Source: Candidatus Bathyarchaeota archaeon
Lineage (GTDB): Archaea; Thermoproteota; Bathyarchaeia; 40CM-2-53-6; CAVXDP01
Reading direction: 5' to 3'
Assembly: GCA_963760485.1 (NCBI GenBank)
Contig: CAVXDP010000002.1
Location: forward strand, 2,362 to 66,361
DNA: 64,000 bases
Part shown: positions 1,284 through 57,843 of the stretch, piece by piece
Position numbering within the stretch: the first letter of the stretch is position 1
Layout: every line of letters begins with the position of its first letter
Translations under genes and position numbers: made by a program
Notes under the pieces: generated by a model
Seen by the model: the letters and a program-made list of their open reading frames with translations, nothing else
The model's database searches: none
Told to the model about the DNA's origin: nothing

Positions 1284-3572
1284 TCATGTAGATGGTTGAA
1301 ACTGTGGTAGATCCGCTCGTCTGACCCCGTCTTTTTCTGTCGGCAAACCAAATTTGAGAGGTTTCATCTCCCTTTCGATGAGTCTCGCCTCTTTCACGGC
1401 AAGAGCTTCTTCTATCAGTGGTGCTACAAGTATCGAGTCAGACTGTTCAAATCGACTTCTATTCAACTGCAAGAACCGTATGAAAGATTCGAATCCATGA
1501 TTGGTTATCAGGTATTCGATACCATCCAATAGCACAACGCCTCGTCGAACCTTTTCCAAGAAGCCGCCGATCAAGATGGATAGCTCTTGGAGGGAATGTA
1601 CACAGACTTGATTTTCCACTTTCTCTTCTGTCAACCATACGATAGGCGTCTTCTCTAAGCCGTACATTTCTCTAACCTTCGGCGGAAATTCTCGGGTAAT
1701 GCAGAGCCCCTTCAAGCCGCTCAGGACGTTATCCACAAAGATGTCGTAAGCCTCTTCCACACTATTTCTAACCAGGTACGAGCAACCGAATTCCAAGTCA
1801 AATCTCTTCTTGCCAGATGTTGCCATTTCTTTCATGGGAACTATTGTCAGACTTTGTCTCTCGAACAGTGTCGAAATGACTTCAGCGTATAAGCCCATGA
1901 TACTCAGATCGCTCTCGTCCAATGTTCGACTTTCTTGTCCACCAAAGGTTAGGATTCCATATGCTTGTTTTCCCAAATGTATTGGAGCGCAGTGAATGTT
2001 AGAAATCCCTAGAATGGATGGTGGGCTTTGCTCAGTCTTGGATACTATTTTGTCATCTTTCAATGCTACAAATTCAACGAAGTTGGCATTCAGTGGGTAG
2101 CTCTCGTCTACTTTGACTCCTTCTATCTTGCTCTTGAAGGCTCGTAATCTGGCTGTATTCCCTTCAGGATCGATGATCAAGACCGCCCCAACATCTAAGC
2201 CAAGGTTATCTAAACCTGCGTCAAGAACTAGATTCAACCCGGTTGACACATCAGCGACTTTCCTCAATCTTTCCCTGATTTTGGATACGTTGTCTATCTG
2301 GCTTATCTTCTGGACTAGTCGTTGCGTTATGCTTCTATTGAGCATCTTAATCTCTTCAACATGACGTCTGAGTTGTTCATCCATTTGTTTGCGTCCGGTA
2401 ATGTCGCGTGCAACTGCAAAAATCAATTGCTCCTTCTTAAATGGAAATGCGTTCCAAGATACCCACCTGTAAGAACCGTCTTTGCAGAGATAACGGTTAT
2501 CAAAACCGACTACTGTTTCGCCTCTGGACAAGCCTTCGACTGCTTTGATGGTTGCTTCGCGGTCATCGGGATGAACAAGACTTAGGTATGGTCTCGACAT
2601 AAGTTCCTGCCTTGTCCACCCCAAGGTCTTTTCCCAAGCTGGATTCATTTGCTTGAAGTAACCGTCAAAACCACAAATACATTTCATATCAATTGACAAA
2701 TTGAAAAATCGATCACGTTCCTCCTCCACTTTTTTCCGCTTGGTGACATCTCTGGCTATTCCTTGCAGTCCAATGACCTTGCCATCTATGATTTTGGGAG
2801 ATGCGTTAATCTCAACGTAACGCAGCGATCCATCTTTCTTCACTATCTCCAACTGCATCCCTTCGACGCCTTTGCCCGCCGCAATTGCGTCGAAACCTTG
2901 CGCGGCTTTTGCAATCTCCTTCTCAGGCAAGAAACTTTGCAGAGTCTTTCCAATGATGTCATCGGGTTTGTACCCTGTCATCCGCTCCACAGCTGGAGAT
3001 GCATAGGTAAATCGTCCTTCCAAATCTGTCTCGTATATCTCATCGAAGCTATTCTCAGCAATACCTCTAAACCTCTCCTCGCTTTCCTGAAGCTCCCTAG
3101 TTCTCCCTTCAACTGTCTGCTCCAAGTGTTCAGAGTATTTTCTAATCTTCTCGTCCATTCGATTGCGCTCGGTGACGTCAATTATTGATATTGCGCTTTT
3201 TCGTGTTCCCGGAATCATCGCGACCGTTAGTAATACGTCTCTAATGTTACCATGTTTGTCGATTAACTGAGATTCATAGCTTCTCGGAGCGACGTTCAGG
3301 CTGTTTCTTCGCAGGCGATGGTACTTGTTCATTCTTGCTAAATGTTTCTTAACAACGAATTCTGTCCAACTTCTCTTGCCCTCTAGCTCCTTCTTTGAAT
3401 AGCCAAAAATCCTCTGTGATTCTGTGTTTACCATAGATATTGTAGTGTCTTCGTCTACAATCATCATCGCAGTTCCCGTATTTTCAAAAATGGCTTTGTA
3501 CTTTGCATCCGATTCGCTTAGACTATTCTCCTTCTGTCTACGAGTTTCTAACATCATTTTTATCTCCCACAC
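1284..3572 (-). CDS. multi-PAS / GAF-like / DUF835 sensory protein without a recognisable output domain
   Basis: 762 aa. Three PAS-like repeats (KYKAIFENTGTAMMIVDED.., RFRGIAENSFDEIYETD.., FFNLSIDMKCICGFDGYF..ARDITGRK), a GAF-like middle region, and a C-terminal DUF835-like block (GLCITREFPPKVREMYGL..PIVWLT..VVLLDGIEYLI). Confidence 0.8.
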   Translation of the reverse strand: MWEIKMMLETRRQKENSLSESDAKYKAIFENTGTAMMIVDEDTTISMVNTESQRIFGYSKKELEGKRSWTEFVVKKHLARMNKYHRLRRNSLNVAPRSYESQLIDKHGNIRDVLLTVAMIPGTRKSAISIIDVTERNRMDEKIRKYSEHLEQTVEGRTRELQESEERFRGIAENSFDEIYETDLEGRFTYASPAVERMTGYKPDDIIGKTLQSFLPEKEIAKAAQGFDAIAAGKGVEGMQLEIVKKDGSLRYVEINASPKIIDGKVIGLQGIARDVTKRKKVEEERDRFFNLSIDMKCICGFDGYFKQMNPAWEKTLGWTRQELMSRPYLSLVHPDDREATIKAVEGLSRGETVVGFDNRYLCKDGSYRWVSWNAFPFKKEQLIFAVARDITGRKQMDEQLRRHVEEIKMLNRSITQRLVQKISQIDNVSKIRERLRKVADVSTGLNLVLDAGLDNLGLDVGAVLIIDPEGNTARLRAFKSKIEGVKVDESYPLNANFVEFVALKDDKIVSKTEQSPPSILGISNIHCAPIHLGKQAYGILTFGGQESRTLDESDLSIMGLYAEVISTLFERQSLTIVPMKEMATSGKKRFDLEFGCSYLVRNSVEEAYDIFVDNVLSGLKGLCITREFPPKVREMYGLEKTPIVWLTEEKVENQVCVHSLQELSILIGGFLEKVRRGVVLLDGIEYLITNHGFESFIRFLQLNRSRFEQSDSILVAPLIEEALAVKEARLIEREMKPLKFGLPTEKDGVRRADLPQFQPST

Positions 3573-4194
3573 CTTCTACAAAGTGGTGATTCTTGACTGA
3601 AGTCAATTCGAATGGTTTTGACAGTGAAGTGTTGATTGAGACAAGCGACTTTGTTTCGATAACGCCATCAATGCTCGACAGTATTTCCAAGACTGTATCG
3701 AGCTTATCCTGTTCAACAATCAGTACAACATCCATGTCTCCAGTAACTCTGAAGATCTCAATGGCAGGCACTGCCTCAATCTTCCTAATAGTTTCTGAGC
3801 GTTTCTGAGGTAGAATTCGCAAGGTTACAATTACAGGATCTTTGTGATAACCAATGGCCCTTAGGCCATCTTCGGTTACGTTTATGAAACCTCGTCCTAT
3901 TTGAACGAAGCCAGATTCTCGAAGCTTCTTGAAATGTAAGCTTAGGGCTTGGCGACTTATCTGTAGCTTTTGAGCAAGGTCGACTTCTCCCATTTGGACA
4001 GCGTAAAAGGTTTTACGATTGCCGATGTCTCGCAGCAACTCCAATATCTGGAGAGACCTTGTAACTGAGAATTTTGCCAATCCATGTGATACGTTCGCGT
4101 TTCGTTGCTTGTCAAGCAAAACCTCTATATTGTAAATCTCAGTTTTGGCTTTGGCTACGGAACACTCCATGGAAGTCAAGGTAATCAGTATCAT
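3538..4194 (-). CDS. HTH transcriptional regulator with Lrp/AsnC-type C-terminal domain
   Basis: 218 aa. HTH-like segment (AQKLQISRQALSLHFKKLRESGFVQ). C-terminal AsnC-type fold signature (IEIFRVTGDMDVVLIVE..IDGVIETKSLV). Overlaps the start of the PAS gene. Confidence 0.7.
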   Translation of the reverse strand: MILITLTSMECSVAKAKTEIYNIEVLLDKQRNANVSHGLAKFSVTRSLQILELLRDIGNRKTFYAVQMGEVDLAQKLQISRQALSLHFKKLRESGFVQIGRGFINVTEDGLRAIGYHKDPVIVTLRILPQKRSETIRKIEAVPAIEIFRVTGDMDVVLIVEQDKLDTVLEILSSIDGVIETKSLVSINTSLSKPFELTSVKNHHFVEGVGDKNDVRNS

Positions 4195-8027: not shown

Positions 8028-8222
8028 ATGGTCAAAGTCGTTGTCGACCCTAAGAAATGCAACGGAGACGGAGTCTGCGTAGGCGTTTGTCCAGTATCTG
8101 TCTTTGAAATGCAGGATGTCTCGGGAGAACAAAAGTCAGTGGTTGTCAATAATGACGCTTGCATTGTCTGCCGAGCCTGTGAGGCACAATGTCCGACACA
8201 AGCGATAACAGTCACAGACTGA
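8028..8222 (+). CDS. small ferredoxin (CxxDxxCxxxCP plus CxxCxxCxxxCP)
   Basis: 64 aa. Motifs CNGDGVCVGVCP and CIVCRACEAQCP. GGAGGTG lies about 10 nt upstream of the ATG. Confidence 0.85.
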   Translation: MVKVVVDPKKCNGDGVCVGVCPVSVFEMQDVSGEQKSVVVNNDACIVCRACEAQCPTQAITVTD

Positions 8223-8296: not shown

Positions 8297-8707
8297 ATGG
8301 CTGGTTCAAAATTCAGAGCTTGTTCTGAATCCTTTTTGGGGGTACAGAAGTTCTTGGACAAGGATCAAGTTTTAGAAGTTCTGAAGAAGGTATACGACCC
8401 AGAATATCCGATGCCTATCACTGATCTCAAGATTGTTGAAAAAGAGGACATCACCATCACCGATGATTCAATGAAAGTGGAGTTCAAGCCCACCGCACCA
8501 TATTGCCCTATGGGCGGCATCATTGGAATCATAATAAAATATGCCTTGGAGAAGAAGTTCGGAAAGAATGTTGACGTGAAGGTGAAGAGCGGAACCCACG
8601 CCCAAGAGTCTATGCTCAATCAGCTATTCTCAGACAGAAAGAAGTACGAAGATACTCTTGAACGCCTAAAGCAATCAGGAATGTTAGAAAAGTGCGTAGC
8701 CGAATAG
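8297..8707 (+). CDS. DUF59/MIP18-family Fe-S assembly-related protein
   Basis: VLEVLKKVYDPEYPMPITDLKIV and PTAPYCPMGG are typical of the DUF59 (SufT/PaaD-like) fold. Confidence 0.7.
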   Translation: MAGSKFRACSESFLGVQKFLDKDQVLEVLKKVYDPEYPMPITDLKIVEKEDITITDDSMKVEFKPTAPYCPMGGIIGIIIKYALEKKFGKNVDVKVKSGTHAQESMLNQLFSDRKKYEDTLERLKQSGMLEKCVAE

Positions 8708-8849: not shown

Positions 8850-9323
8850 TTGGCCGAGGTTTCGCAACAAAAGATCTTGGTCTTTGACAAACGCGTTTGC
8901 ACAGGCTGTAGACTCTGTGAACTTGCCTGTTCTTTCGTGAAATTCAGCAATGTCTGCAGCTATGAAAGGACGAATATCAGGCACGTCATAGAGTTCGAGC
9001 GAGGCGAGATAGAATGTCAATACTGCCAACACTGTGAGGATCCATTATGTATAGCATCTTGCCCAGTTGACGCCATCCATAAGGATGAAAAGACAGGCAT
9101 TGTGAAGATCAACACTCTCGAATGCATCGGTTGTCAAACATGCAACATGGTATGCCCAACACACATACCGAAGTTCTACGCAGACCTCAAGATCTCCACT
9201 AAATGCGACCTCTGCAATGGTGACCCAGAATGTGTCAAGTATTGTTCACCCTGGGCAATATCCTACGTAACCAGAGAAGAAGCCGATAAGATTTTGAAAG
9301 AAGTCTATGATGAGAGGCAATAG
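8850..9323 (+). CDS. polyferredoxin with four [4Fe-4S] motifs (HycB/DmsB-like)
   Basis: Motifs CTGCRLCELAC, CQHCEDPLCIASCP, CIGCQTCNMVCP and CDLCNGDPECVKYC. Confidence 0.85.
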   Translation: MAEVSQQKILVFDKRVCTGCRLCELACSFVKFSNVCSYERTNIRHVIEFERGEIECQYCQHCEDPLCIASCPVDAIHKDEKTGIVKINTLECIGCQTCNMVCPTHIPKFYADLKISTKCDLCNGDPECVKYCSPWAISYVTREEADKILKEVYDERQ

Positions 9324-9735
9324 TGACTTGACAGTTACATCCAAGATAAGCCAACCAGAGATCAGTGAGGCCCTGCGCAATGAGTTGAGAGAGAAACTCA
9401 TAGGCGAATCAAATATGTTTCCAGACAGGCCCGTGTTCAATATTCAAGAAGCCGGCTTGAGTCAAGCTGTGAAGTTGCTCCTTCAAAAGTTCGATGCGAG
9501 ATTCCTAACGATCACGGCCTACGATGATGGAGTTGATTTTGAACTAATCTATCACATTGACGTTAAGGGTACAGTATTGAATCTTAAGGTGTTAATTCCG
9601 AAGGAAGAATCGCAGATAGCTTCGATCACGAATATTGTACCCGGAGCCTGCTCAGCAGAGAGAGAAATATGGGATCTTTTCCAGATCAAGTTTGAAGGAA
9701 TAAGCGATTCAAGAGCTCTCGATCGCTCCATATGA
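9307..9735 (+). CDS. NuoC/EchD-like hydrogenase subunit; C-terminus continues in another frame
   Basis: FLTITAYDDGVDFELIYH..AEREIWDLFQIKFEG matches the 30-kDa subunit family. The family-typical ending PYEWRDTNAPLRK is read in the frame of ORF 9770..10006, so there is an apparent indel near 9725-9733. Confidence 0.8.
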   Translation: MMRGNSDLTVTSKISQPEISEALRNELREKLIGESNMFPDRPVFNIQEAGLSQAVKLLLQKFDARFLTITAYDDGVDFELIYHIDVKGTVLNLKVLIPKEESQIASITNIVPGACSAEREIWDLFQIKFEGISDSRALDRSI

Positions 9736-9769
9736 ATGGAGAGACACCAATGCCCCATTAAGGAAACCG

Positions 9770-10006
9770 ATGGGCGGCATCGTCGCAAGTTTTCAGAAAC
9801 CCACCGTTGAAAAACTCATGCAGCAGGGCATGGTATTCCCCATATCTTCCATGGTGAACAATCAGAGGGCTGCACTCAAGCTTCCCCCGATCGTGTCGAC
9901 AATAACGAAGCCCGAAGCTCTCAAGGAGATCCATGAAATAGCATCAGAAGTAGGCTTCGACAAGAGAATAGGATACTCTCTGGGTAAAAACAAGTTCAGG
10001 TACTGA
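9770..10006 (+). CDS. Cys-free 78-aa segment, either a separate ORF or a C-terminal extension of the NuoC-like subunit; possible HdrC-arm analog
   Basis: The frame is open from 9704 and in frame with the PLRK ending of the NuoC-like protein. It lies directly upstream of hdrB, where hdrC normally sits. Any similarity to the HdrC C-terminus is from memory only. Confidence 0.45.
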   Translation: MGGIVASFQKPTVEKLMQQGMVFPISSMVNNQRAALKLPPIVSTITKPEALKEIHEIASEVGFDKRIGYSLGKNKFRY

Positions 10007-10009
10007 ACA

Positions 10010-10908
10010 ATGGAGCAAAGAAAAGAATACGCCATGTACTGGGCTGCTGGGTCGAAGCGAGACAACATAGCGTTGAAGCTGCCTGCCGAGGGGTTTTGGA
10101 GAGATTTGGAATAAACGCACGAGACATGGAAGGTGCTTCGTGTTGCCCTGACCCCGTGGTCACGGAGAGACTTCAGCGTGAACTGTGGCTGGCATTGGCT
10201 GCAAGAAACCTTTCCATAGCAGAAAACATGAAAATGGACATGGTAACCGTCTGCAACGGTTGCTACGAGACACTTTTTGAAGCAAGAGAGATGTTGAAGA
10301 CAAACCAGGAATTCAGAGAGAAAACGGAGAAAGCTCTCGCCAGAGTTGGAAAACCATTTCCAGCAAATCCAGGACTGAAGCACATTATTGACGTGTTGGC
10401 TCATGATATTGGAGTTGAAAAAATCAGTAAGTTGAGTGCCAACCGCCTGAACAAATTGAATGTTGCAATTCATCCGGGTTGTCACTTGCTTAGGTCGCAT
10501 AGCCGCGAGAGTTCCCGCGAAAGACCGAAAATGTTTGAAGACATTGTCACTGCAACGGGCGCCGTGGACGTGGACTATCGGTTGAAAAGGTTTTGCTGTG
10601 GATATCCCCATCGTGTCGTTGAAGAAGAATTCTCACTGAAAATGATGCTTGCAAAGAAGTTGCATAGCATCTGGATGAAGGCGGCAGATTGTATAGTAGT
10701 CTGCTGTCCAGCATGCAACATCCAATTTGAACTGGGACAACTTGAACTCAAGAGGAAATATCAAATTGATTTTGGTGAGGGAGGGATAGGAATACCCGCA
10801 ATCCATATTGCTGAACTCGTTGCCCTAGGCATCGGAATGAAACCTGAAGAATTCGGCCTACGAAACCATCGAGGCCCGGTCCAAAACATAATCTCAAAGC
10901 TGGGATAG
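10010..10908 (+). CDS. hdrB: heterodisulfide reductase subunit B (HdrB) homolog, N-terminus frameshifted near 10039
   Basis: Two CCG-type Cys motifs: (Y)LGC..DMEGASCCPDP..VCNGC and HPGCHLL..FCCGYP..CCPACNIQFELGQ. The N-terminus MEQRKEYAMY joins LGCWVEA.. only after a 1-nt correction. Confidence 0.85.
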
Positions 10909-10912
10909 AGAA

Positions 10913-12082
10913 TTGTCAACAATCATACCTATTGGCCCATTTCATCCAGCACTCAAGGAATCGGCATTTTTCAAACTTGAGATTGATGGTGAAAAGATAG
11001 TCGGTGGCGACATAAAGTTCGGTTACATGCATAGAGGAATAGAAGACCTCGCCACAAAGAAGACTTATCATAGCAATATCTTTCTGGCAGAAAGAGTATG
11101 CGGAATCTGCAACACCGTTCACTCTACATGCTACACCCAGACGGTAGAGGCCTTGATGGGTATGATCCCCCCTGAAAGGGCTAAGTACATTAGGACAATC
11201 ATTTTCGAGACTGAAAGAATTCAAAGCCACCTGCTTTGGTTCGGAGTCGCAATGCACGAGATAGGCTACGACACAGCGTACATGTACATGTGGAAAGAAA
11301 GAGAACATGCCGTGGAAATACTCGAGGCAATCTGTGGAAAAAGGGTCAACCTTGGACTGAACACGTTAGGTGGCGTAAGAAGGGACATTACGCCCGAACT
11401 GAAGAAATTCGTAGCCACAAAGATGGACATACTGGAAAAAGTCGTTGAAAAGGTTGGAAAAATAGTCACCGAAGACAGAATCGTGAAACAAAGGGTAAGA
11501 GATGTTGGCGTGCTCACAAGAGATAATGCCAAGAAACTCTGTGTCGTCGGACCCACGGCCAGAGGCTCCGGTGTTGACATAGACATAAGAAGGGATGATC
11601 CATACGCTGCATACGCGAACGTCGAGTTTGATGTTCCAGTGCAGGAAGGTGGAGACGTCCTCTCGAGGACCCTGGTTAGACTAAACGAACTTTTCCAATC
11701 AATAAGAATAATCCGTCAAGCTTTGAAAGATCTCCCAGACGGCCCAATTGTTCTTGACGAACTTCCTTTTCCTAGAGTTGGAGAGGCCTTTGGAAGGGTT
11801 GAGGCTCACCGCGGTGAGCTCCTCTACTATGTTAGGTCAAACGGCTCAAACCGCCCTGAACGAGTCAAGATTCGGACACCGTCTGTGGTTAACAACAATG
11901 CTTTGTTGCCAATGATGCTGGGAAACACGATAGCGGATGCCCCGATAATACTCGCAAGCATAGATCCATGTATGTCTTGTACGGACAGAGTCACGTTACT
12001 TGACCTTAGAAAGAACTCCAAAAAGGAAGTTAAGCTCTCAAGTCTGAGAAGAGATAGCAAATCAGGAAGGTGCTTCACCTAA
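10913..12082 (+). CDS. [NiFe]-hydrogenase large subunit, group-4 (NuoD/EchE-like) type
   Basis: 389 aa. N-terminal Ni-ligand motif RVCGICNTVH. C-terminal motif DPCMSCTDR followed by a tail of about 30 aa. Confidence 0.9.
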   Translation: MSTIIPIGPFHPALKESAFFKLEIDGEKIVGGDIKFGYMHRGIEDLATKKTYHSNIFLAERVCGICNTVHSTCYTQTVEALMGMIPPERAKYIRTIIFETERIQSHLLWFGVAMHEIGYDTAYMYMWKEREHAVEILEAICGKRVNLGLNTLGGVRRDITPELKKFVATKMDILEKVVEKVGKIVTEDRIVKQRVRDVGVLTRDNAKKLCVVGPTARGSGVDIDIRRDDPYAAYANVEFDVPVQEGGDVLSRTLVRLNELFQSIRIIRQALKDLPDGPIVLDELPFPRVGEAFGRVEAHRGELLYYVRSNGSNRPERVKIRTPSVVNNNALLPMMLGNTIADAPIILASIDPCMSCTDRVTLLDLRKNSKKEVKLSSLRRDSKSGRCFT

Positions 12083-12630
12083 CCTTGAAGAAGAACATTG
12101 TAATAGAAGCTCTCAGAGGACTTGTGAATCCCGTTACTACAAAGTACCCGGAGCAACCGTATCTTCCCCCAGATGGATATAGAGGCGCAGCTGAATACGA
12201 CTCAGAGAAATGTGTGGGTTGCGGCGCGTGTGCTCAGGAGTGCCCTCCTGGAGCTATCACATACACGGATACTGAAGAAGCACGAAAAATCAGATTGAGC
12301 TACGGACTCTGCTCCTTCTGTGGACGCTGTGAAGAAATCTGTCCGTGGGATGCAATCCACCTAACCAAGAAATATGAGTTGGCCGTCTACGATAGAAAGG
12401 ATGCAGAGACAGGAATCGATGTTCCCTTCTTCAAGTGTATTGAATGTGGAAGACCATTCATTCCATCTCCACAGATGAAAGCTTCACTTGACAGAGTGAA
12501 GGAGACCCTCGCAAAATATGGAATTTCGGAACAGGACCTAGCGGGTCTAGCCTCACTTTGTCCCACATGCGCGTTTAGCGTTACAGGGATTCCCCAAAGA
12601 AGAATGTTCATGCGAAAACTGGTCAGGTAA
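12070..12630 (+). CDS. NuoI/EchF-like 2x[4Fe-4S] subunit with extra C-terminal Cys pairs
   Basis: TTKYPEQPYLPPDGYRG, CVGCGACAQECP and CSFCGRCEEICP, plus CIECG..CPTCA. Confidence 0.85.
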   Translation: MLHLTLKKNIVIEALRGLVNPVTTKYPEQPYLPPDGYRGAAEYDSEKCVGCGACAQECPPGAITYTDTEEARKIRLSYGLCSFCGRCEEICPWDAIHLTKKYELAVYDRKDAETGIDVPFFKCIECGRPFIPSPQMKASLDRVKETLAKYGISEQDLAGLASLCPTCAFSVTGIPQRRMFMRKLVR

Positions 12631-12635
12631 CACAA

Positions 12636-13055
12636 ATGTTAGAGAGTCTCAAGTCTTTCGCGAGAAGAAAATCTCCGTGGATAATGCATTGTCCATGTGG
12701 AGGCTGCAATGGATGCGACATAGAAATAATTGCGGCGTTGACACCCAAATACGATTTGGAGCGGTTCGGCGTTCTCCAAAGAGGGACCCCCAGACATGCT
12801 GACATACTGCTTGTCACGGGCGTAGTCACTCAACAAGTGAAAGACCGACTCAAGAGAATTCATGACATGACGCCGGACCCTAAGCATGTTGTTGCAGTAG
12901 GCTCTTGCGCATTGGATGGTGACATTTTCCATGACGGTTACGGATATGCTGGCCCATTGGACAAGATTATGCCGGTAAGTGTGTATATACCTGGATGCCC
13001 TCCGAGACCTGAAGCCATAATTGATGGCATTAGCAAACTCCTGAAAAAGATCTAG
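12636..13055 (+). CDS. [NiFe]-hydrogenase small subunit, group-4 (NuoB/EchC-like) type
   Basis: Motifs GGCNGCDIEI, PRHADILLVTG, VGSCALDGDIF and PGCPPRPEAI. Confidence 0.9.
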   Translation: MLESLKSFARRKSPWIMHCPCGGCNGCDIEIIAALTPKYDLERFGVLQRGTPRHADILLVTGVVTQQVKDRLKRIHDMTPDPKHVVAVGSCALDGDIFHDGYGYAGPLDKIMPVSVYIPGCPPRPEAIIDGISKLLKKI

Positions 13056-13123: not shown

Positions 13124-15345
13124 TCAAACCCTGTCCATGAAATCTTCAGCCTTCTGCGGTTCCGGTGGGAGACCTTTCCTCTTCCTAATATCTGTCATTA
13201 CCTGAGTGAGCATTGAGACTGGAACTGGAGACCACCTAGCGAATTCTAGACCCCAGAAAGCTCTTCCAGCCGTTGCACCTCGCAGAATTTCTGATAAATC
13301 GAATGTTTCAGCCGTCGGCATTTCTCCAACCACATACATCAAGTGACCTTTCTGATCAACCGACACGACCTTGCCTCTCTTCTGTGATATCACACTCGTG
13401 ACTTCGCCAAGTAGATCAGGCGGAATCTTCGCAGTCATCCTCTGAACGGGTTCTAGGAGAGTAGGCTGCGCTGAAAGGAAAGCTGCAAACAGGGCTCTTC
13501 TCATCATAGGCATTAGCTGGGCGGGGCCACGATGGACAGGATCCTCGTGAAGACTAACATCCGAGATCCTGGTTTTCACTCCCCTTATCTGCTCATAGGC
13601 TAGAGGACCCTCTTTGATACCCCATTTGTAACCTGCAATTATCATGTCCTTGCCTTCCAGTAAGTACTGGGCACCCTTTGTCACTTCAGTTAGAATGTTG
13701 CAGGTATCGTCAAGTGCCCAGATTCCTCGTGACTCGTCCGTGTCCCATCCCTTTTCTCTTAGGAGTTTTGCCATCGCATGTTTGTCCATGTACTCGCTGA
13801 TCTTGCCTGTCTTCATCATGTCGACAACTTCTTCTTGGAGTGGCTCAACGCTAACTTTTACCTTATTGTGTTTGTTAGGTGACTTTCCTTCGAATGGTCC
13901 AGCTGAGGATTTTATGCTCTCTCGGTAAAGAACTATGGGTTCTGATGTCGTCACTTCGAGACCTGTCTTCGTTATCAGGGTTGTAGCAATCTCGAGGTGA
14001 AGTGTACCCATTCCGGAGATGAGATATTCCCCAGTCTCCTCGTTTATTTTTGTGACAAGGTTAGGATCTTCTATCGTGAGCTTTCTCAACGTCTCAACGA
14101 GCTTGGGCAGATCACGGCTATACTTCGGTTCAACTGCGATTGTGACAACGGGTTCCGTGACATAGCTGACAGCTTCGAACGGAGCCACGTCCTTTGTGCT
14201 AGCTAACGTTTCTCCAGCTCTTGCCGCTTGGATACCCAAGACTGCAGGGATGTTTCCAGCTCCAAGTGAACCAATGACTTCACGGTATGGCCCCATGTAG
14301 ATGCAAACTTGCTGAATCCGCGCTTCGGATTTCGCTCCAATGAGGTACACCGTTTCGCCTTCGCGAAGTGTTCCTGAGAACAATCTTCCAGTCGCTCGCC
14401 ACACCGGCCTGCGGATCCACCACTATGTTTACAATACACATAACCGCGGGGCCATTGTCATCACAATTCATCATCGACTGTCCAATTTCACTGTTCACGT
14501 CTCCATGCCATATCTTGGGAATCCTATACTTCTGGGCCACATGTGGCGGTACCATCGATCCGATACACATGTTCAGTATAGCTTCATGTAACGGACTTTT
14601 GTCACGAAGTTCCTCAACTTTACCAATGTTGTAGGAGTCCACGACATCAGAAAACTTGACTCCTTTGGATTTTGCAATCTCACTTGTAAAACCCCATCTG
14701 TCTTTCGCTGAGCCCATGGCGACGGTGTTTGTAGCAAAACTAACCTTCCAATTCTCTCGAAACTCGGGTTCAGCGTAAAGTTCGATAAGATCGTTGAAGT
14801 CCTTAATTATCCTCGCGATTCTTTCCTGAATCTGCTCCGCAGTCAGTTTCAGTTCCTTGATCAGACGATCTATCTTGTTTATGTACAGAACTGGTCTAAC
14901 TCTCTCTTCAAGAGCCTGTCTAGTCACCGTTTCTGTCTGAACCATGACTTCCTCAACAGCGTCAACCACCACCACAGCTCCGTCAATTGCTCTGAGTGAT
15001 CGAGTGACTCTACCCGAAAAATCAACGTGACCAGGAGTATCGATAAGGTTGATCACGTAGGGCGTGCCATCTTTCTCGTGAAGCAAGCTAACGTTGGCGG
15101 CCTTGATCGTCATCTGTCGCTTCTGTTCTTCTTCCATAAAGTCTAGAGCCAGAGCTGAACCAGCCACGGATGGCGATAACATCCCGGCAGCAGCAAGGAG
15201 AGAATCGCTCATCGTGGTTTTTCCATGATCAACATGAGCAATGATACCAATATTATCCGGACGTGGAAAACTTCTACGCCTTTCGGATTTGGTCCTTGTT
15301 CTGTATGATCTTCATTATCTCCGTGGTTGTTTTGTAACGAACCAT
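13124..15345 (-). CDS. fusA: translation elongation factor aEF-2, interrupted by a 28-nt insert and one +/-1 shift
   Basis: AHVDHGKTT, DTPGHVDF, NKIDR and the diphthamide loop LHEDPVHRGPAQ. Exon 1 is 15345..15282 (MVRYKTTTEIMKIIQNKDQIR). The insert is 15281..15254. The gene then follows the frame of ORF 14280..15212 and shifts near 14395 into ORF 13124..14404. Confidence 0.9.
15254..15281 (-). other. candidate BHB (splicing-endonuclease) intron within the aEF-2 coding sequence
   Basis: 28 nt containing an in-frame TAG. 3-nt bulge AAA, 4-bp helix UCCG/CGGA, 3-nt bulge UAA, flanked by 5-bp inner and 6-bp outer helices. Excision restores IRN-IGIIAHVDHGKTT. Confidence 0.6.
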
Positions 15346-15649: not shown

Positions 15650-17258
15650 ATGATTCAGAATGGAGAACTTCCATTTACAGTGCTTGCAGAACTTTGCGCA
15701 AGCTTAGAAAAGACAAGTGGAAGAATTGAGAAAACACGCCTACTCAGCGCTTTCTTGAAACTCTTACAACCTGACGAGATTGAACCTGCAGTCGCAATGA
15801 TCAAGGCAGAACGTTTCCAGAATCAGATCCTAGAGTGCTTCAGATCGGTGGCAGAATCATATGGAAAAAGATCGTTCAACAGGCACGGCAAACTGCACTG
15901 GTTCAATCAACTCTTACTTTGAAGAAGGTTCAGAAGATCTTCGATGACATAGCATCCGCCTATGGTGCAAGGCTCAAGAGACAAGAAGGAGGCTTTGGTC
16001 GACGCCCTACTTGGTCAGGCCTCGCCCTTGGAGCGGGAGTATGTTACAAGGATAGCTCTCGGAGAGATGCGAATAGGTGTCGTTGAGGGAGTCATGGAAG
16101 AGGCCATCGCGAAAGCGTCGGATGTAGACGTTGAACTTGTGAAAAGGGCAAACATGCTTTCTGGAAATCTTGGCACTGTTGCCCGAATAGCACTGGAAAA
16201 AGGTCGAAACGGTTTGAGACAGATTTCTGTGACCCTTTTCAATCCAATCAAGCCTATGCTCGCAGAAACGTCAAGCCTAATCGAAGTCTTGGCTGACAAA
16301 AGGGGCAAGGTGGCGTTCGAATACAAGTTCGACGGAGTGCGAATACAAGCCATAAGAATGGCGAGCGGATTTCAATATACACGAGGAGACTCACAGACAC
16401 AACCATTAGCCTACCAGATATTGTTGAGGTTATTCGACAAAAAACCTATGCAACCAAGGCACTCTTAGAGGGAGAAGTTGTTGCAGTCGGATCGACCGGC
16501 AAACCACTTCCATTTCAAGACTAATGCGAAGGTTCAGAAGAACAGTTGACGTCGAGAAGATAGCCAAAGAGATTCCTCTGAAGCTGTGCCTTTTCGACAT
16601 ATTACTGGTAGAGGACACTCCGTTGTTTGATCTGCCGTACCAAGAAAGATGGAGTATTCTGAGCAGGATCTGTAGCGAGGATCTCTTGGCAAGAAGGATA
16701 ATAACGGACCAGCTTGCCGAAGCTGAACGTTTTCTCGTCGAAGCCATAAAGGCTGGACATGAAGGGCTAATGGCCAAATCACTTGATGGAACATACGTTC
16801 CAGCCGTCCGAGGGAAGAGATGGCTCAAGATCAAGCCCCCGGAAAGCCTAGACGTTGTTATCGTCGCAGCTGACTGGGGATCTGGCAGAAGAAGAAATTG
16901 GTTGAGCAATTATCATCTTGCTGTCAGAGACCCAGAGAATGGCCGGTTTTTCGATGTTGGGAAAACCTTCAAGGGTCTAACCGATTCCGAGTTCCGAATG
17001 ATCACTGATAGACTTCAAAGCATCAAAACTGGTGAGACAGATTACACAGTCTTCGTCAAACCAGAGATCGTCGTAGAAGTTACGTATAACGAAATTCAGA
17101 AAAGTCCACATTATGACTCTGGCTTCGCACTAAGATTTGCACGAATAACTCGGATAAGAGACGATAAAGGCCCGGAGGTGATTGATACAATCCAGAGCGT
17201 CAAAAGATTATACGAAAGGCAGTTTGAACAGAAATCAAGGCGCACAATACAACCCTGA
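15650..17258 (+). CDS. lig: ATP-dependent DNA ligase, read through four apparent +/-1 frameshifts
   Basis: Fragments in five frame segments give a continuous ligase: ELCASLEKTSGR.., ..SPLEREYVTRIALGEMRIG.., adenylation motif EYKFDGVR, LEGEVVAV, LFDILLV, WLKIKP. Shifts lie near 15801, 15969, 16350 and 16521. Confidence 0.85.
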
Positions 17259-22727: not shown

Positions 22728-23631
22728 ATGATCATTGCGGCGAGTAAACGCTTCAACATGCTTCTAATGCGAGTCCTGATCTTTTTTGGGGAAGTTCATT
22801 TGTCGTTATGAGAATAGCGTTGAACGAAGGATTGACTCCTATCGCCACTGCTACATTAGATTTGTAGTCGCTGGATCGTTATTCACTGGTGTAGCTTCAA
22901 TCAGTAAGAGAAAGTTCGGTAGATATGCACTTGTAAGAAGAAGAGATCTACCGATGCTATTGCTTCTATCATTGACTGGCGTGACCTTCTTCTACATATT
23001 TCAGTACCAGAGTATTCAGATGGCAGGCGCGTCTATTGCCTCAATCCTTGTCTGTTTGCTTTCACCAGTTCTCATTTCTACTTTGTCTGCCATCATATTG
23101 AAGGAGCGCCTATCCAGAAGATAGGTTATCGGCATTGGAGCTGCCTCTATAGGCACTTTCATCGTTGTTACAGGGGGCGCCATGGATTTGGGAGGTAGCC
23201 CTCAATTCCTTTCCGGGACTCTGCTTTTCCTTCTCACATCCTTCCTCTGGGCCACCTACAGCATAGCTGGAAGGGGGATGATGAGAAAGTATCACCCGTT
23301 CCTCATTGTGACGTATGTAAAAGCCCTAGGCGCGTTGTGTCTAGTCCCATTCTCATTGATTGACGGGTCTTTTTTCCAAGTCTTCAAAATCACTTTCGAA
23401 GGATGGCTGGCAATCCTCTACTTGGCCGTGACCTGTTCACTGTTCGGATACTACATTTGGCTCTATGTGATGAGACGACTAGGAGCCACTGTTACCTGCT
23501 CATTCATGTTTGCCGAACCACTAATTACGGTGTTGCTTGCGATAGCTTTTCTGCGAGAAACATTGAGTCTTTTCACTATACTGGGTGGCCTTCTGATCTT
23601 TGTAGGCGTCTATGCAGTTGTCAAAAAATAG
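22728..23631 (+). pseudogene. EamA/DMT-family transporter with two apparent frameshifts and an in-frame TAG
   Basis: WGSSFVVMRIALNEGLTPIATATL is read in another frame between about 22785 and 22858. TAG at 23122-23124 sits where the family usually has Gln (ERLSRR*VIGIGAA). The second EamA repeat (23182..23631) is intact. Start is 22728 or 22758. Confidence 0.65.
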
Positions 23632-37419: not shown

Positions 37420-38233
37420 ATGTCAAAGGAGGAGTTGTCAAAATTGAATTCTGGAAAGAGAAAGCGATTGTACAGAATAATGCCAGATGGAAAAACGGTA
37501 ATCATCCCTATGGATCACGGAGTCACCAACGGCCCGATTAGAGGGCTCGTTAACATGCAAACCATCGTAAACAAGCTCGCTTGAAGGTGGGGCAGATGCC
37601 ATGGTTGTCCACAAGGGTATAGCCAACGCCGTTGACACTGGCAAAGCGGGATTGATCGTGCATCTTTCAGGAAGTAATCAGTTTAGCCCAGACCCAAGCC
37701 GAAAGGTTCGCGTCTGTTCAGTGAAAGAGGCTCTGCGAATTGGCGCTGACGCGGTCTCCGTACACATCAATGTTGGAGCCAACGACGAGCCGTACATGTT
37801 GGAGAAGCTGGGAGCGGTAGCCGACGAATGCGACGAACTTGGATTACCCCTGCTCGCAATGATGTACCCCCGGGGAACAAAAATCTCGAGTGAACATGAC
37901 CCAGAAGCAGTAGCCTTGGCCGCCAGACTTGGGGCTGAACTAGGAGCTGACATCATAAAAACAAACTACACCGGTGACATTGAGACTTTTCGCAAGGTTA
38001 CGGCAGGATGCCCAGTGCCCGTAATCATAGCAGGAGGACCAAAAGCTAAGACAGATGCAGAGGTGCTCAAAATGGTATGCGATGCAATTGCCGCAGGCGG
38101 AGTTGGGGTCTCTATAGGCAGAAACGTCTTCCAAAATGATAATCCCGCGGCTATGACAAAGGCATTATCAGCGATCGTACATCGTGGAGTCGGAGCTGAC
38201 GAAGCTCTGAGAATTCTTGGGGTTAAAGGTTGA
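37420..38233 (+). CDS. aroA': 2-amino-3,7-dideoxy-D-threo-hept-6-ulosonate (ADH) synthase, DhnA-type aldolase; apparent 1-nt insertion at 37581-37582
   Basis: A 54-codon N-terminal part, not in the ORF track ([24 protein letters not shown]), joins [12 protein letters not shown].. of ORF 37601..38233. The Schiff-base Lys context is DIIKTNYTG. Confidence 0.85.
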
Positions 38234-39300
38234 AAGAATTCTGGGTTCGAATCGCAAAGAACTTACCGCTTGAGAAAAAGAAAGAAGTACTCAAGAAGGC
38301 TGCAACAATATGTGACGTAGTTTTCGTGTCAGACGACGACATAGATTTGGCTCGTGAGATGAACGCGCCCAAGATTGCAAGCCCATCAAAGGGCGACATC
38401 AAGATTTTTACTGTTACTGATCTGGACAGTATTCGAACCCTAAAACTTCATGAAGGAGTTACTGGAGTCGAAGTTACAGTTCTAAATGCTGATGATGAGC
38501 GTATTGTGCTGGCGGCTGCGGAAGCGGGAGCCAAATACGTTCTCATAAAGTGTCCAAACTGGAAAGTTATTCCACTAGAGAATGTTATCGCTAGAGCCCA
38601 TGGAAAGATTAGACTCATAGCTGAGGTATCAGACGCAGAAGAGGCTAAGACTGCTCTTGAGACGCTGGAGATTGGGGTAGATGGGATCCTCCTACAAGCA
38701 GAAGAGTCAAAGTCAATCAGTGAAATAGCAAACATCACGAAAACCCTAGAGAACACTTTCACCTTGACCGAGGCGAAAGTAACCAACATAAAACCTTTGG
38801 GAACAGGAGCCAGAGTCTGCGTCGACACAACCGAACTCATGAAACATGGTGAAGGCATGCTGGTCGGGTGCCAATCACTGGGACTTTTCCTGGCTCAAGC
38901 TGAAGTTGAAGTCAATCCACACGTTGAAACACGCCCATTCAGGGTCAACGCCGGCCCAGTCTCATGTTACGTCCTAACACCAGGAAACAAGACGAAGTAT
39001 CTTTCAGATTTGAAAGCAGGTGAAGAAGTTCTCATAGTCGACCGCATGGGCAGAACCAGAACTGGAAATGTTGGTAGAATAAAAATCGAGTCCAGACCCA
39101 TGCTTCTGATTGAAGCTGAAGCAAAGGGAGTCAAAATAAAGACCGTAACACAAAACGCTGAAACTATTCGATTGGTCACGCGAGCAGGCTCCATTTCAGT
39201 TTCTCAACTCAAAGTCGGAGACACAGTACTCGCTAGACTCGAAGAAGGAGGACGCCATTTTGGAACACTTGTCAAAGGCGAGATGGTGATCGAAAGGTGA
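38230..39300 (+). CDS. aroB': 3-dehydroquinate synthase II (archaeal type)
   Basis: N-terminus KEFWVRI.., about 356 aa, directly downstream of the ADH synthase as in other archaea. Start overlaps the upstream stop. Confidence 0.85.
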
Positions 39301-39977
39301 CACCAAGCGTCTGCGCATCTATCGCCGCCTCAACCGTTCAAAAGACTATGCGTTTGCTCAAGAAAGCGGAAAAGAACAATGCCAACTTGATTGAGTTTAG
39401 ACTCGATCACCTGGAAAAGAACTACAGAATAAGCGACTTGATTTCTTCAACAAGACTCCCTAGGATTGCAACCAACCGCAGTGCAAACGAAGGGGGAAAA
39501 TTCCGAGGCGAAGAAACAAATCGAGTTCAATCTCTTCTTCAGGCCGCTGAAGCAGGATGCGAATTTGTGGACTTGGAACTTGCAATGGAAAACGTTGGGA
39601 GCATAATCCGAAAGGCGAAGAGGCTTGGCGTACAAGTAATCATATCATATCATGATTTTCAACGTACGCCAGACCTTCAAGAACTCCGAAGGATATTAGA
39701 GAAACAGATGAATCTGGGAGCGGACATTTGCAAGATAGTTTCAACAGCAAAGGAGCAATCTGATAATCTGAGAATACTTGAATTTGTTTTCAATGCCAGC
39801 AGGAAAACAAAGGTTGTCTCATTCGCTATGGGGAAGCTGGGAGTAGTTTCACGCGTGCTTTCACCGATCTACGGTGCATCCTTCACGTTTGCGTCAGTTG
39901 AGCGAGGTGCTGAGTCTGCTGCAGGGCAACTGACTCTGGACGAGATCAAGAACGCCTACAGATCGATGAGGCTATAG
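39297..39977 (+). CDS. aroD: 3-dehydroquinate dehydratase, type I
   Basis: LIEFRLDHL, IISYHDF, CKIVSTA and SFAMG. Confidence 0.85.
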   Translation: MTPSVCASIAASTVQKTMRLLKKAEKNNANLIEFRLDHLEKNYRISDLISSTRLPRIATNRSANEGGKFRGEETNRVQSLLQAAEAGCEFVDLELAMENVGSIIRKAKRLGVQVIISYHDFQRTPDLQELRRILEKQMNLGADICKIVSTAKEQSDNLRILEFVFNASRKTKVVSFAMGKLGVVSRVLSPIYGASFTFASVERGAESAAGQLTLDEIKNAYRSMRL

Positions 39978-39980
39978 TTT

Positions 39981-40850
39981 TTGGATCTCTCAAGCAGGAC
40001 GAAGCTCTGTGGGGTCATAGGAGATCCCATTGAACACTCTCTAAGTCCCAAGATGTTCAACGCAGCTTTCAGAGCTAACGACCTAGATTTCACCTATGTT
40101 GCGATGAATGTTAAGAAAAACGGACTCGCCAAAGCGATCGAGGGAATGAAGGCTCTTAACATACACGGACTGAATGTCACCATACCGCACAAGGTTAAGG
40201 TAGTAGGATACTTAGATCGCGTCGACCCTGATGCGAAGATGATCGGAGCTGTGAACACGATTCTTAATGCCAATGGCAAACTGGAAGGGTTCAACACTGA
40301 TGGAACCGGAGCAGTACGTGCAATCGAAGAAAGTGGGACATCACTAGAAGGAAGAAACGTGGTACTTATTGGAAGTGGTGGAGCAGCGAGAGCGATTGCT
40401 TTCACATTCTCAAATAGAGTTGGCAAACTAACCATTCTGAACAGACACGTGCACAAGTCCGAGAAGCTCGCTACTGAGTTGACCAAAAAAACGGGAAGGA
40501 AAGTATACTTCGAAGGCTTAAGGAAAGAAGCATTGGAACGCGCCATCTCGGAGGCTGATATGCTAGTTAACGCTACGTCAGTCGGAATGTCTCCGAACTG
40601 TGATGCCTCAATCCTAGATGGTTCACTGCTCAGACGTGATCTGGTTGTCTTCGACATAGTCTACAATCCACCCGAAACCAAGCTGCTGAAAGAAGCCACA
40701 AGTATTGGAGCAAAGGCCGTGAACGGCATTGGTATGCTCGTTCACCAAGGGGGTGAAGCCTTTAGAATTTGGACTAGTAAAGAGGCTCCAGTGAGACTTA
40801 TGCGTGAAGTTGTTACGGAAGAATTGTCGAGATTGAGTGGAAAAACATGA
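39981..40850 (+). CDS. aroE: shikimate dehydrogenase
   Basis: GVIGDPIEHSLSPKMFNAAF, LNVTIPHK, NTDGTG and GSGGAARA. Confidence 0.9.
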   Translation: MDLSSRTKLCGVIGDPIEHSLSPKMFNAAFRANDLDFTYVAMNVKKNGLAKAIEGMKALNIHGLNVTIPHKVKVVGYLDRVDPDAKMIGAVNTILNANGKLEGFNTDGTGAVRAIEESGTSLEGRNVVLIGSGGAARAIAFTFSNRVGKLTILNRHVHKSEKLATELTKKTGRKVYFEGLRKEALERAISEADMLVNATSVGMSPNCDASILDGSLLRRDLVVFDIVYNPPETKLLKEATSIGAKAVNGIGMLVHQGGEAFRIWTSKEAPVRLMREVVTEELSRLSGKT

Positions 40851-41713
40851 AAGCTGCAGCGGTGGCGCACGGAGCCGTTACTGTTGTCAACGCGATATCT
40901 ACAGGTAAAGGAGCGGCGCTCGGCATTGATCTCTGGACATCTGCAAGCGTAGCTCTGAACGATGACCCAGGAAGTGTGGAGGTGCGGATCAAACCAGATC
41001 CGAGCGAAAATCCTGAACTTGCCCGCAAGGTGGTTGGAAGAATCCTTCGGAGATTCGGGAAGGAAGAGGAGTACGGCGCCAAAGTCCAGGTTGATTCGAA
41101 CATTCCAATTGCACGTGGACTAAAGAGCAGTAGCGCAGCCGCAAATGCAATAGCTTTGGCGACCGTTGGTGCCCTCGACAAAAGACTTCCTGAACTTGAA
41201 ATAGTGAAACTTGGTGTCAGAGCGGCGATCGAAGCAGGTGTTACCATTACCGGTGCATTCGACGATGCGTGCGCATCGTATTTTGGAAACATTCTTGTAA
41301 CTGACAACAAGAAACTGAAGATCGAAAAAGCCTACGACATAAAGAGACACTACGAAGTCCTAGTTCATGTTCCTGAATCGAAGAGCTACACAGCTGACTC
41401 GAACATTGAGAGAATGATGGAAATCGCTCCACTGATCCAAGTAGCACATCAGCAGGCACTTAGGGGGAATTACTGGGATGCCATGTGCATCAACGGCTAC
41501 GCACATTCAATCGCGCTCAGTTACGATCCGAGTATTGCAATGAAGGCTCTTTCCGCTGGCGCTATTGCCTCTGGACTTTCTGGCAAAGGTCCTGCAGTCG
41601 CAGCTGTTGTTCCATCTAGCAAAGTCGATTCCGTAAAGGCGATTTGGGCGCAATATCCTGGAAGACTATTGCTCGCTACTGTGAACAGGAAGAAGGCACA
41701 CATAATGGAATGA
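40847..41713 (+). CDS. aroK: shikimate kinase, archaeal GHMP-kinase type
   Basis: GHMP motif PIARGLKSSSAAANA. Sits between aroE and aroA. Confidence 0.85.
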   Translation: MKAAAVAHGAVTVVNAISTGKGAALGIDLWTSASVALNDDPGSVEVRIKPDPSENPELARKVVGRILRRFGKEEEYGAKVQVDSNIPIARGLKSSSAAANAIALATVGALDKRLPELEIVKLGVRAAIEAGVTITGAFDDACASYFGNILVTDNKKLKIEKAYDIKRHYEVLVHVPESKSYTADSNIERMMEIAPLIQVAHQQALRGNYWDAMCINGYAHSIALSYDPSIAMKALSAGAIASGLSGKGPAVAAVVPSSKVDSVKAIWAQYPGRLLLATVNRKKAHIME

Positions 41714-41719
41714 ACATGC

Positions 41720-55278: not shown

Positions 55279-55351
55279 CTAACCTACCTGCAAGAATCGA
55301 AGTGTGCGATGTTTATCTGTGTTGCTAAGACATGAATCTGTACTCGGCTGT

Positions 55352-56107: not shown

Positions 56108-56116
56108 TCTACTTGT

Positions 56117-57613: not shown

Positions 57614-57843
57614 AATTCCCTCTTCTAGTCAATTGGGTCGAAATTGAGGTTTTCTAAGATGCATTGAGCTAGTGGCACATGAATGACTCATTTTAAATTT
57701 TCGGGAACTATCTGCCTACAATTGCCGCACACTTGAAGGCCATTGACGTGCCACTGCTAGAGGCCCTTGCTGGCTTTGATTAGAGCAAAGCTTAATAGAC
57801 ATTACAGAACCGATTCTTCTCGCAACAAAAAGGTGAATTAGAA

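Follow-up and report, generated by a model that had tools for sequence, protein, structure and literature searches.

By definition, group-4 [NiFe] hydrogenases are treated as membrane-bound energy converters, and complex I is considered to have evolved from them. The 64,000 nucleotides of contig CAVXDP010000002.1 from Candidatus Bathyarchaeota archaeon (assembly GCA_963760485.1) analyzed here, hereafter the window, which also bounds the gene searches, raise the question of whether the redox module of such an enzyme can exist without its membrane arm. The window holds an operon of six genes, in the order polyferredoxin–NuoC–HdrB–large subunit–NuoI–NuoB, where the gene for the heterodisulfide reductase subunit HdrB is embedded among those of a hydrogenase. 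Judged by sequence, these genes specify a group-4-type [NiFe] hydrogenase module in which a bona fide HdrB is embedded and from which membrane subunits are missing altogether. The interpretation preferred here, to which a probability of roughly 55% is given, is that of a cytoplasmic, six-subunit, non-energy-conserving H2:disulfide oxidoreductase, which would have arisen by stepwise loss of the membrane arm.

The six genes lie on the forward strand between positions 8850 and 13055, overlapping or separated by gaps of a few bases, and all of them were assigned from Pfam scans and from sequence matches to solved structures in the PDB. These matches agree with the extent of the operon proposed in an earlier reading made from the letters alone (the sequence-only reading). 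Most of its coordinates hold as well, with the exception of the NuoI-like gene, which does not begin at 12070 but, by comparison with relatives, at a TTG codon at 12085. The hdrB gene sits between nuoC and the gene for the large subunit, with spacers of 3–4 bp on its sides, and the convergent neighbor at the 3' end of the operon is fusA, encoding aEF-2.

The large subunit keeps both pairs of nickel-ligating cysteines (RVCGICNTVH and DPCMSCTDR), and these ligands are conserved in every HdrB-linked large subunit examined. Its top matches among solved structures are HycE (7Z0S_E, 1.1e-81) and MbhL (6CFW_L, 2.4e-81). The alignment to HycE runs through the tail that is cleaved off by HycI and, judged by this alignment, the 30-residue C-terminal tail of the large subunit is a homologue of the HycI-processed tail of HycE; both the nickel ligands and the maturation-type tail that had been noticed earlier are thus borne out. 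The NuoB-like subunit matches MbhJ (6CFW_J, 1.8e-50), with the cysteine motifs of the proximal [4Fe-4S] cluster aligned, and holds no transmembrane segment, unlike the 226-residue NuoB of a relative (L001). The NuoI-like subunit matches HycF (7Z0S_F, 2.8e-23) and also MbhN (6CFW_N). Outside both of these alignments, at residues ~117–170, it bears a C-terminal CxxC...CxxC extension whose four cysteines are kept in all three HdrB-linked clades described below, and which may constitute a putative extra metal site. A NuoD/HycE-type large subunit with the L1 and L2 motifs, together with NuoB-, NuoC-, and NuoI-like subunits, are among the features by which group 4 is recognized, and these are found in this operon; the integral membrane subunits that also mark the group, a NuoH-like one and at least one antiporter of the NuoL/M/N type, are not.

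HdrB matches the HdrB of the methanogen Mvh-Hdr complex over its full length (5ODC_B, E = 2.2e-67), and its 10 cysteine residues are invariant across relatives (alignment A1), which upholds the earlier identification of an embedded HdrB with CCG motifs. Through its two CCG motifs, the protein is predicted to bind two non-cubane [4Fe-4S] clusters. The polyferredoxin, which contains four CxxC-type cysteine groups and is 76–88% identical to the copies of relatives, has its best solved-structure matches in a hydrogenase Fe-S subunit (9MQX_E, 1e-24), the AOR Fe-S subunit (8C0Z_C), and HycB (7Z0S_B). This protein would act as the electron wire that leads from the NuoI-like subunit to HdrB.

The NuoC-like subunit provides a second connection between both halves of the operon. 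The sequence-only reading had described a 78-residue, cysteine-free segment (9770–10006) as a gene of its own; this open reading frame (ORF) turned out to be the C-terminal part of the NuoC-like gene, reached through a frameshift. In relatives, a single NuoC-like protein of 220–229 residues spans both 9307–9720 and 9722–10003. A profile of the C-terminal extension, built from 25 loci and searched against the PDB, matches only HdrC chains, and only at their C-termini. The strongest matches are 8RVU_c, over residues 110–184 of 185 (E = 4.7e-13), and 5ODC_C (4.7e-12), followed by the weaker 9SFI_E (3e-10) and 7BKB_C (1e-3). HdrC is already the top match in the PDB when the extension is searched as a single sequence. 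Among 1.84 billion representatives, a single-sequence search yielded 11 matches, the best of them being NuoC fusions of ~160–220 residues, with no free HdrC-like protein among the 11; to bring out the homology to HdrC, the profile was required. Ordinary group-4 NuoC proteins do not carry the extension, as exemplified by the 159-residue protein of locus L092.

As judged by these profile matches, the extension is the C-terminal, HdrB-binding arm of HdrC grafted onto the NuoC-like subunit. We take the C-terminal region of HdrC to lie against HdrB in the Mvh-Hdr structures. Because the profile matches HdrC C-termini, HdrC is not simply absent from this system, and the earlier statement that hdrA, mvh, and a canonical hdrC are all lacking stands for the first two and is half right for the third. 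Only the C-terminal arm of HdrC is present, and no HdrC-type N-terminal 2x[4Fe-4S] ferredoxin domain was found in the window.

The absence of membrane subunits, also claimed in the sequence-only reading, withstood three kinds of search. Queried by tblastn with NuoH, NuoL, and HycI from relatives, the window gave no match, the hydropathy scan revealed no large polytopic protein, and no membrane subunit was detected by Pfam. None of the six operon products holds a transmembrane segment. Elsewhere in the window, such segments are confined to an ECF T-component (CbiQ), a split EamA transporter, and a 223-residue protein without family. Similarly, HdrA, Mvh, Hyp, and HycI were not found in the Pfam scan of the ORFs of the window, and the remaining ORFs are assigned by Pfam to housekeeping functions (exosome, proteasome, shikimate operon, MoeA, ThiF, thermosomes, and topoisomerase IB). 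No molybdopterin enzyme adjoins the operon, so that a partner of the FdhF type is missing, and scans of the window for tRNA and Rfam families returned no match.

The same gene order, with hdrB adjacent to a nuoD-like gene, was found in more than 70 independent genomes or contigs. The best matches of the large subunit are from Bathyarchaeia, and the HdrB-linked loci can be arranged into three clades. Clade B includes members of Nezhaarchaeales (L011), Methanomethylicia (L023), Baldrarchaeum (L024), Asgardarchaeum (L070), and some Bathyarchaeia. Its order is polyferredoxin–NuoL–NuoC–HdrB–large subunit–NuoH–NuoI–NuoB, often followed by HycI, and the large subunit of the window is 58–59% identical to those of Nezhaarchaeales and related members. 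In the Nezhaarchaeales locus L011 (585–4886), the polyferredoxin gene is immediately preceded by genes for a lipoate-protein ligase, a radical SAM protein, GcvH, and a product resembling dihydrolipoamide dehydrogenase, which hints at a protein-bound lipoyl disulfide as the substrate in that lineage.

Clade A, to which the window belongs, contains loci with and without NuoH. The NuoH-bearing members are Bathyarchaeia (L001–L006, L014–L021), with large subunits 75–80% identical to that of the window and no NuoL. They hold a two-helix transmembrane tail, either fused to NuoB (L001) or as a separate ORF (L005), and two conserved small ORFs of two to three helices downstream (L001 12614–14543; L005 12611–14520). 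Operons of the L001/L005 type thus represent a membrane module without any antiporter-like subunit. Some of these NuoH-only operons are closely followed by two to three NuoL-like antiporter genes in convergent orientation, on the other strand (L014 12972–19065, L020 6721–10773, and L096–L098). TusA and NifU are encoded near the operon in NuoH-bearing Bathyarchaeia; neither these nor lipoyl-type genes like those of L011 were found in the window.

The members of clade A without NuoH are the window, L007/L008 (85% identity), L009/L010 (88%), L013, and L125 (99%), and the closest NuoH-less relatives come from independent assemblies. NuoL and HycI are absent from these relatives, as they are from the window. 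All of these loci are also without the NuoB tail and the small transmembrane ORFs, and nuoI follows the gene for the large subunit after 3–13 bp. A 64-residue ferredoxin is encoded directly upstream of the operon of the window and has a counterpart upstream of the NuoH-less L007–L010 and L013, but not in NuoH-bearing relatives. Likewise, a gene for a DUF59 protein occupies the same position in L007–L010 and is absent from the NuoH-bearing relatives. In the NuoH-less locus L007 (12278–19307), the operon is followed by a rubrerythrin, a four-gene cluster for a group-3-type [NiFe] hydrogenase, and an NfnAB/SudAB-like pair. The features of the window are collected in Table 1.

Table 1. Genes of the HdrB-linked hydrogenase operon and of its upstream neighborhood, with positions in the window
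Feature	Position	Strand	Basis of assignment
2x[4Fe-4S] ferredoxin, 64 residues, candidate redox partner	8028..8222	+	Pfam Fer4 families
DUF59 / FeS_assembly_P protein; linked to the operon by conserved synteny only	8297..8707	+	PF01883, E=9e-11
HycB-type polyferredoxin	8850..9323	+	Fer4_11, E=1.8e-13
NuoC/EchD-like subunit fused to the C-terminal arm of HdrC	9307..10006	+	PF00329; relatives; extension profile
HdrB	10010..10908	+	PF02754, two stretches (two CCG domains)
[NiFe] large subunit, HycE/MbhL/NuoD type	10913..12082	+	PF00346, PF00374
HycF/NuoI-like 2x[4Fe-4S] subunit	12085..12630	+	Fer4 families; start from relatives
MbhJ/HycG/NuoB-like small subunit	12636..13055	+	PF01058, E=1e-30

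Clade C comprises ~45 GTDB loci (L028–L079, L088), mostly from Bathyarchaeia and Hadarchaeia, exemplified by L037 (8206–16762). It shares with the window the core polyferredoxin–NuoC(+HdrC arm)–HdrB–large subunit, with the nickel ligands intact, and no NuoH or NuoL is encoded within 10 kb. It differs in that NuoB and NuoI are fused into one protein of 302 residues and in an additional HdrC-like + HdrB2 pair, which lies downstream together with HypF; HycI and an ECF/ABC transporter are located upstream. The HdrB proteins of clade C are 40–45% identical to that of the window, and the clade is a separate lineage in the tree of large subunits. In this tree of HdrB-linked large subunits (neighbor-joining, one outgroup similar to formate hydrogenlyase (FHL), no support values), the NuoH-less loci of clade A form a single clade nested in the NuoH-bearing grade, and that grade is in turn nested in clade B. 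The best explanation for this distribution would be that the operon is derived from a membrane-bound HdrB-linked group-4 ("Ehd-like") enzyme that lost NuoL first and NuoH afterwards.

The proposed mechanism would begin in the HycE/MbhL-like large subunit, whose [NiFe] site would split H2. The NuoB-like subunit would receive the electrons at its proximal [4Fe-4S] cluster, from which they would travel through the two clusters of the HycF/NuoI-like subunit and the four clusters of the HycB-like polyferredoxin, and would finally reach the non-cubane clusters of HdrB, where a disulfide or a persulfide would be reduced. HdrB would be held on the hydrogenase by the HdrC-derived arm fused to the NuoC-like subunit. 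The wiring through the polyferredoxin is modeled on FHL and the clamping of HdrB on Mvh-Hdr, and both likely apply by analogy. Due to the lack of a membrane arm (NuoH, NuoL), the reaction would not be coupled to ion translocation, and its energy would not be stored as an ion gradient. Flavin-based electron bifurcation was considered and rejected, as neither HdrA nor any other flavoprotein is present, and it is not expected without a flavoprotein. The transfer of electrons from H2 (~-414 mV for H+/H2) to common disulfides (~-140 to -290 mV) is exergonic. The sequences show the identities of the genes, the conserved motifs, the fusion to the HdrC arm, the lack of membrane genes in the window and in its closest relatives, and purifying selection. 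From them we infer that the subunits form a complex, in what order electrons pass its clusters, which way the reaction runs, that the enzyme is soluble, and what kind of substrate it reduces.

Several points weigh against this cytoplasmic H2:disulfide oxidoreductase. The order of losses is read from the neighbor-joining tree described above, and two of the six operon genes carry frameshifts in this assembly. The upstream ferredoxin suggests an electron donor or acceptor other than those of the proposed path, so that the flow from H2 to a disulfide is perhaps not the only or the main one. The main risk is a membrane partner, since membrane partners, as well as hyp and hycI, may be encoded beyond the 64 kb of the window. 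Furthermore, the loss of NuoH has left few traces in the remaining subunits: in the NuoH-less subclade, only 2 of 158 conserved columns of the large subunit are changed with respect to NuoH-bearing members, and switches from hydrophobic to polar residues number 0–1 per subunit. This near-absent remodeling of the interface neither supports nor refutes solubility.

The first alternative, which we consider unlikely, builds on this last point and holds that the module is still membrane-associated and energy-converting, docked on NuoH- or antiporter-like subunits whose genes lie in another part of the genome, such as the subunits of a second complex of the group-4 or Fpo-like type. Besides the missing signature of a lost NuoH interface, it would be favored by the second NuoB–NuoI–large subunit cluster that lies, convergently, immediately downstream in L009/L010, and by the opposite-strand NuoL-like genes near the NuoH-bearing L014, L020, and L096–L098, which suggest that split encoding of membrane parts occurs in the family. 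However, no such membrane gene is present in the window, and the neighbor varies among NuoH-less loci, being fusA in the window, the group-3-type hydrogenase in L007, and the second complex in L009. What the sister clade has besides NuoH, a transmembrane tail on NuoB and small transmembrane ORFs, is gone as well. When metagenomic contigs were scanned with the NuoH of the sister clade, all 15 loci at ≥50% identity were found between the gene for the large subunit and nuoI, with no orphan cognate NuoH among them. Moreover, the independent clade C presents the same membrane-less core in ~45 loci.

The second alternative, to which a similarly low probability is given, places the start of the electron flow at reduced ferredoxin. 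The polyferredoxin would take electrons from the adjacent 64-residue ferredoxin, and the enzyme would work as a ferredoxin:H+/disulfide redox valve, with H2 evolution like that of an uncoupled Ech or FHL and/or disulfide reduction. The conservation of the ferredoxin gene directly upstream only in the membrane-less subclade is consistent with this model, as is the fact that the large subunit, the polyferredoxin, and the HycF-like and HycG-like subunits most resemble those of the H2-evolving FHL and Mbh. Characterized group-4 enzymes mostly evolve H2 from low-potential donors, which also counts in its favor. Nevertheless, HdrB would be needless for a simple ferredoxin-dependent evolution of H2, and yet it is under strong selection and its cluster ligands are invariant. 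The sequence does not determine which way the reaction runs, and the published models of the related Ehd, Drh, and Ehg enzymes favor H2 uptake (PMC9723716, PMC12700198).

The third alternative takes the operon to be in decay and without function, with the frameshifted nuoC and hdrB and the missing nuoH as steps of pseudogenization. The two frameshifts, which lie within 330 bp, had been anticipated in the sequence-only reading and are indeed present in this sequence: one extra base in a CTCTC run of nuoC (~9716–9720) and one G missing from a G4 run of hdrB (10041–10043). The absence of nuoH in comparison with sister lineages would fit decay as well. Broken genes are found elsewhere in the window too: aEF-2 (13124–15212, reverse strand) is divided between two ORFs that overlap, the ATP-dependent DNA ligase (15650–17258, forward strand) lies in three pieces, and the EamA transporter (22780–23628, forward strand) in two. 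The assembly is probably rich in indels and of long-read origin, and one of the two operon frameshifts falls in the G4 homopolymer. Because essential genes are also split, and because all six genes are intact in the short-read assemblies of NuoH-less relatives, both operon frameshifts are probably assembly indels rather than signs of decay. A programmed frameshift was rejected, since the relatives read straight through both sites.

Selection also speaks against decay. Between the window and the 88%-identical L009, the ratio of nonsynonymous to synonymous substitution rates (dN/dS) is 0.03–0.11 for the polyferredoxin, NuoC, HdrB, the large subunit, and NuoI, with dS saturated throughout; for NuoB, dN is low (0.106) and dS too saturated for a ratio. 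All cofactor ligands are intact. The operon is under strong purifying selection by these values and, with the NuoH-less relatives from independent assemblies, the membrane-less state is a conserved, selected feature of the lineage and not an artefact; a decaying operon is very improbable. As for an assembly chimera at the insertion of hdrB or at the junction between the large subunit and nuoI, for which only the general indel noise of the assembly could be invoked, a chimeric join is excluded for practical purposes because the gene order recurs in the >70 genomes mentioned above and because the short-read contig L125 matches positions 10588–12880 at 98.1% identity without any gap.

The cytoplasmic H2:disulfide oxidoreductase is thus the best reading of the operon. 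It is probably not a wholly new system, as had been supposed when the architecture was taken to be undescribed, but a soluble variant of an already predicted family of enzymes. Predicted HdrB-linked group-4 hydrogenases include Ehd from Methanomethylicia, Ehe from Culexarchaeia, Drh from Methanocellales, and Ehg from Nezhaarchaeia, and an "Ehd-like" cluster includes sequences from Bathyarchaeia (PMC9723716). Ehd is credited to Borrel et al. 2019, as cited in Kohtz et al. 2022 (PMC9723716). Drh (Lyu & Lu 2015, as cited) is described as lacking an antiporter subunit, and direct reduction of the heterodisulfide by H2, without an ion gradient, has been proposed for it (PMC6046458, PMC9723716). The enzyme, termed "putative membrane-associated", was up-regulated when its host grew in syntrophic co-culture (PMC6046458). 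Expression of Ehg has been observed in a Methanonezhaarchaeia strain in culture (PMC12700198), and hdrB2 has been reported inside an "fpo" operon of Bathyarchaeia, where fpoBDHL are stated to be always present (PMC8407382).

Compared with these systems, the operon of the window has hdrB inside the cluster, next to the catalytic gene, and a related catalytic subunit; the membrane association described for them (through an antiporter subunit in Ehd, Ehe, and Ehg, and at least an anchor in Drh) has no counterpart among its six products. In the literature searched, an incomplete library, no soluble or cytosolic HdrB-linked group-4 enzyme was found, nor any description of a fully membrane-less form, of the NuoC::HdrC-arm fusion, or of clade C. 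The family has therefore already been predicted, while its fully membrane-less form and the fusion to the HdrC arm appear to be undescribed.

Ehd and the Ehd-like enzymes are the closest known systems. They share with the window the core order polyferredoxin–NuoC–HdrB–large subunit–NuoI–NuoB, the nickel ligands, the HycE-type tail, the HdrC arm on NuoC, and the four-cysteine extension on NuoI. However, they hold an antiporter-like NuoL and NuoH (L011, L022–L025, L070), both missing from the window, and have been modeled as ion-translocating (PMC9723716). Either of the published names, Ehd or Ehd-like, may fit the enzyme of the window. Drh, compared by description only, is also an HdrB-linked group-4-type hydrogenase without antiporter subunit and with a proposed H2-driven disulfide reduction, but it is putatively membrane-associated and belongs to a euryarchaeal methanogen, where CoM-S-S-CoB is the obvious substrate. 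A locus labeled "Methanomicrobia" (P0081) was considered as the Methanocella Drh locus and rejected, as it proved to be a cluster of the ordinary FHL-like kind, which includes antiporter subunits but lacks HdrB.

Two characterized complexes share parts with this operon. FHL-1 from E. coli (7Z0S) provides the best or near-best structure match for four subunits (HycE, HycB, HycF, and HycG), and there a soluble catalytic subunit is likewise wired to the hydrogenase through a HycB-type polyferredoxin. The operon of the window differs in holding HdrB in the place of FdhF and in having no counterpart of HycC or HycD, and its enzyme would likely take up H2, whereas FHL-1 evolves it. The MvhAGD-HdrABC complex (5ODC, 8RVU) resembles it in its HdrB, in the C-terminal arm of HdrC, and in the H2-to-disulfide chemistry proposed. 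Contrary to the group-4 module described here, its hydrogenase belongs to group 3c, and the window holds no HdrA (the site of flavin bifurcation), no MvhD, and no HdrC ferredoxin domain.

Other genes of the window include a complete archaeal-type operon for aromatic amino acids (37571–45966, forward strand), which encodes a DeoC-type aldolase, dehydroquinate synthase II, dehydroquinase, shikimate dehydrogenase, a GHMP-type shikimate kinase, EPSP synthase, chorismate synthase, chorismate mutase-prephenate dehydratase, and prephenate dehydrogenase. On the reverse strand, two tandem MoeA genes, one of them fused to a PBP-like domain, are followed by a ThiF/MoeB-type gene (52020–56116), and a eukaryotic-type DNA topoisomerase IB matches all three of its three Pfam domains (56120–57628). 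A large PAS/GAF/DUF835 sensor protein of 763 residues is encoded at 1287–3575, also on the reverse strand.

The wider proposition, which we place somewhat short of even odds, is that the peripheral arm of a complex-I-type hydrogenase persists as an autonomous soluble H2:disulfide enzyme, with the membrane arm absent in at least two lineages of Bathyarchaeia/Hadarchaeia and HdrB clamped by an HdrC arm grafted onto NuoC. A conserved and selected membrane-less derivative wired to HdrB would show the redox module working alone. Bathyarchaeia and Hadarchaeia, two groups that dominate many anoxic sediments and whose genome-based metabolic models annotate such genes as "NADH dehydrogenase" or "fpo-like", would also gain a further route by which electrons pass from H2 (or ferredoxin) to disulfides, one that involves neither bifurcation nor ion pumping. 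If true, this would represent a widespread, unrecognized redox link between H2 and thiols/disulfides or sulfur carriers in some of the most abundant subsurface archaea. The reduction from NuoL plus NuoH, through NuoH only, to neither would further provide a natural series for studying the coupling and uncoupling of redox chemistry and ion pumping, with matched natural variants for the contributions of NuoH and NuoL, and the fusion to the HdrC arm would offer a concrete model for the docking of HdrB.

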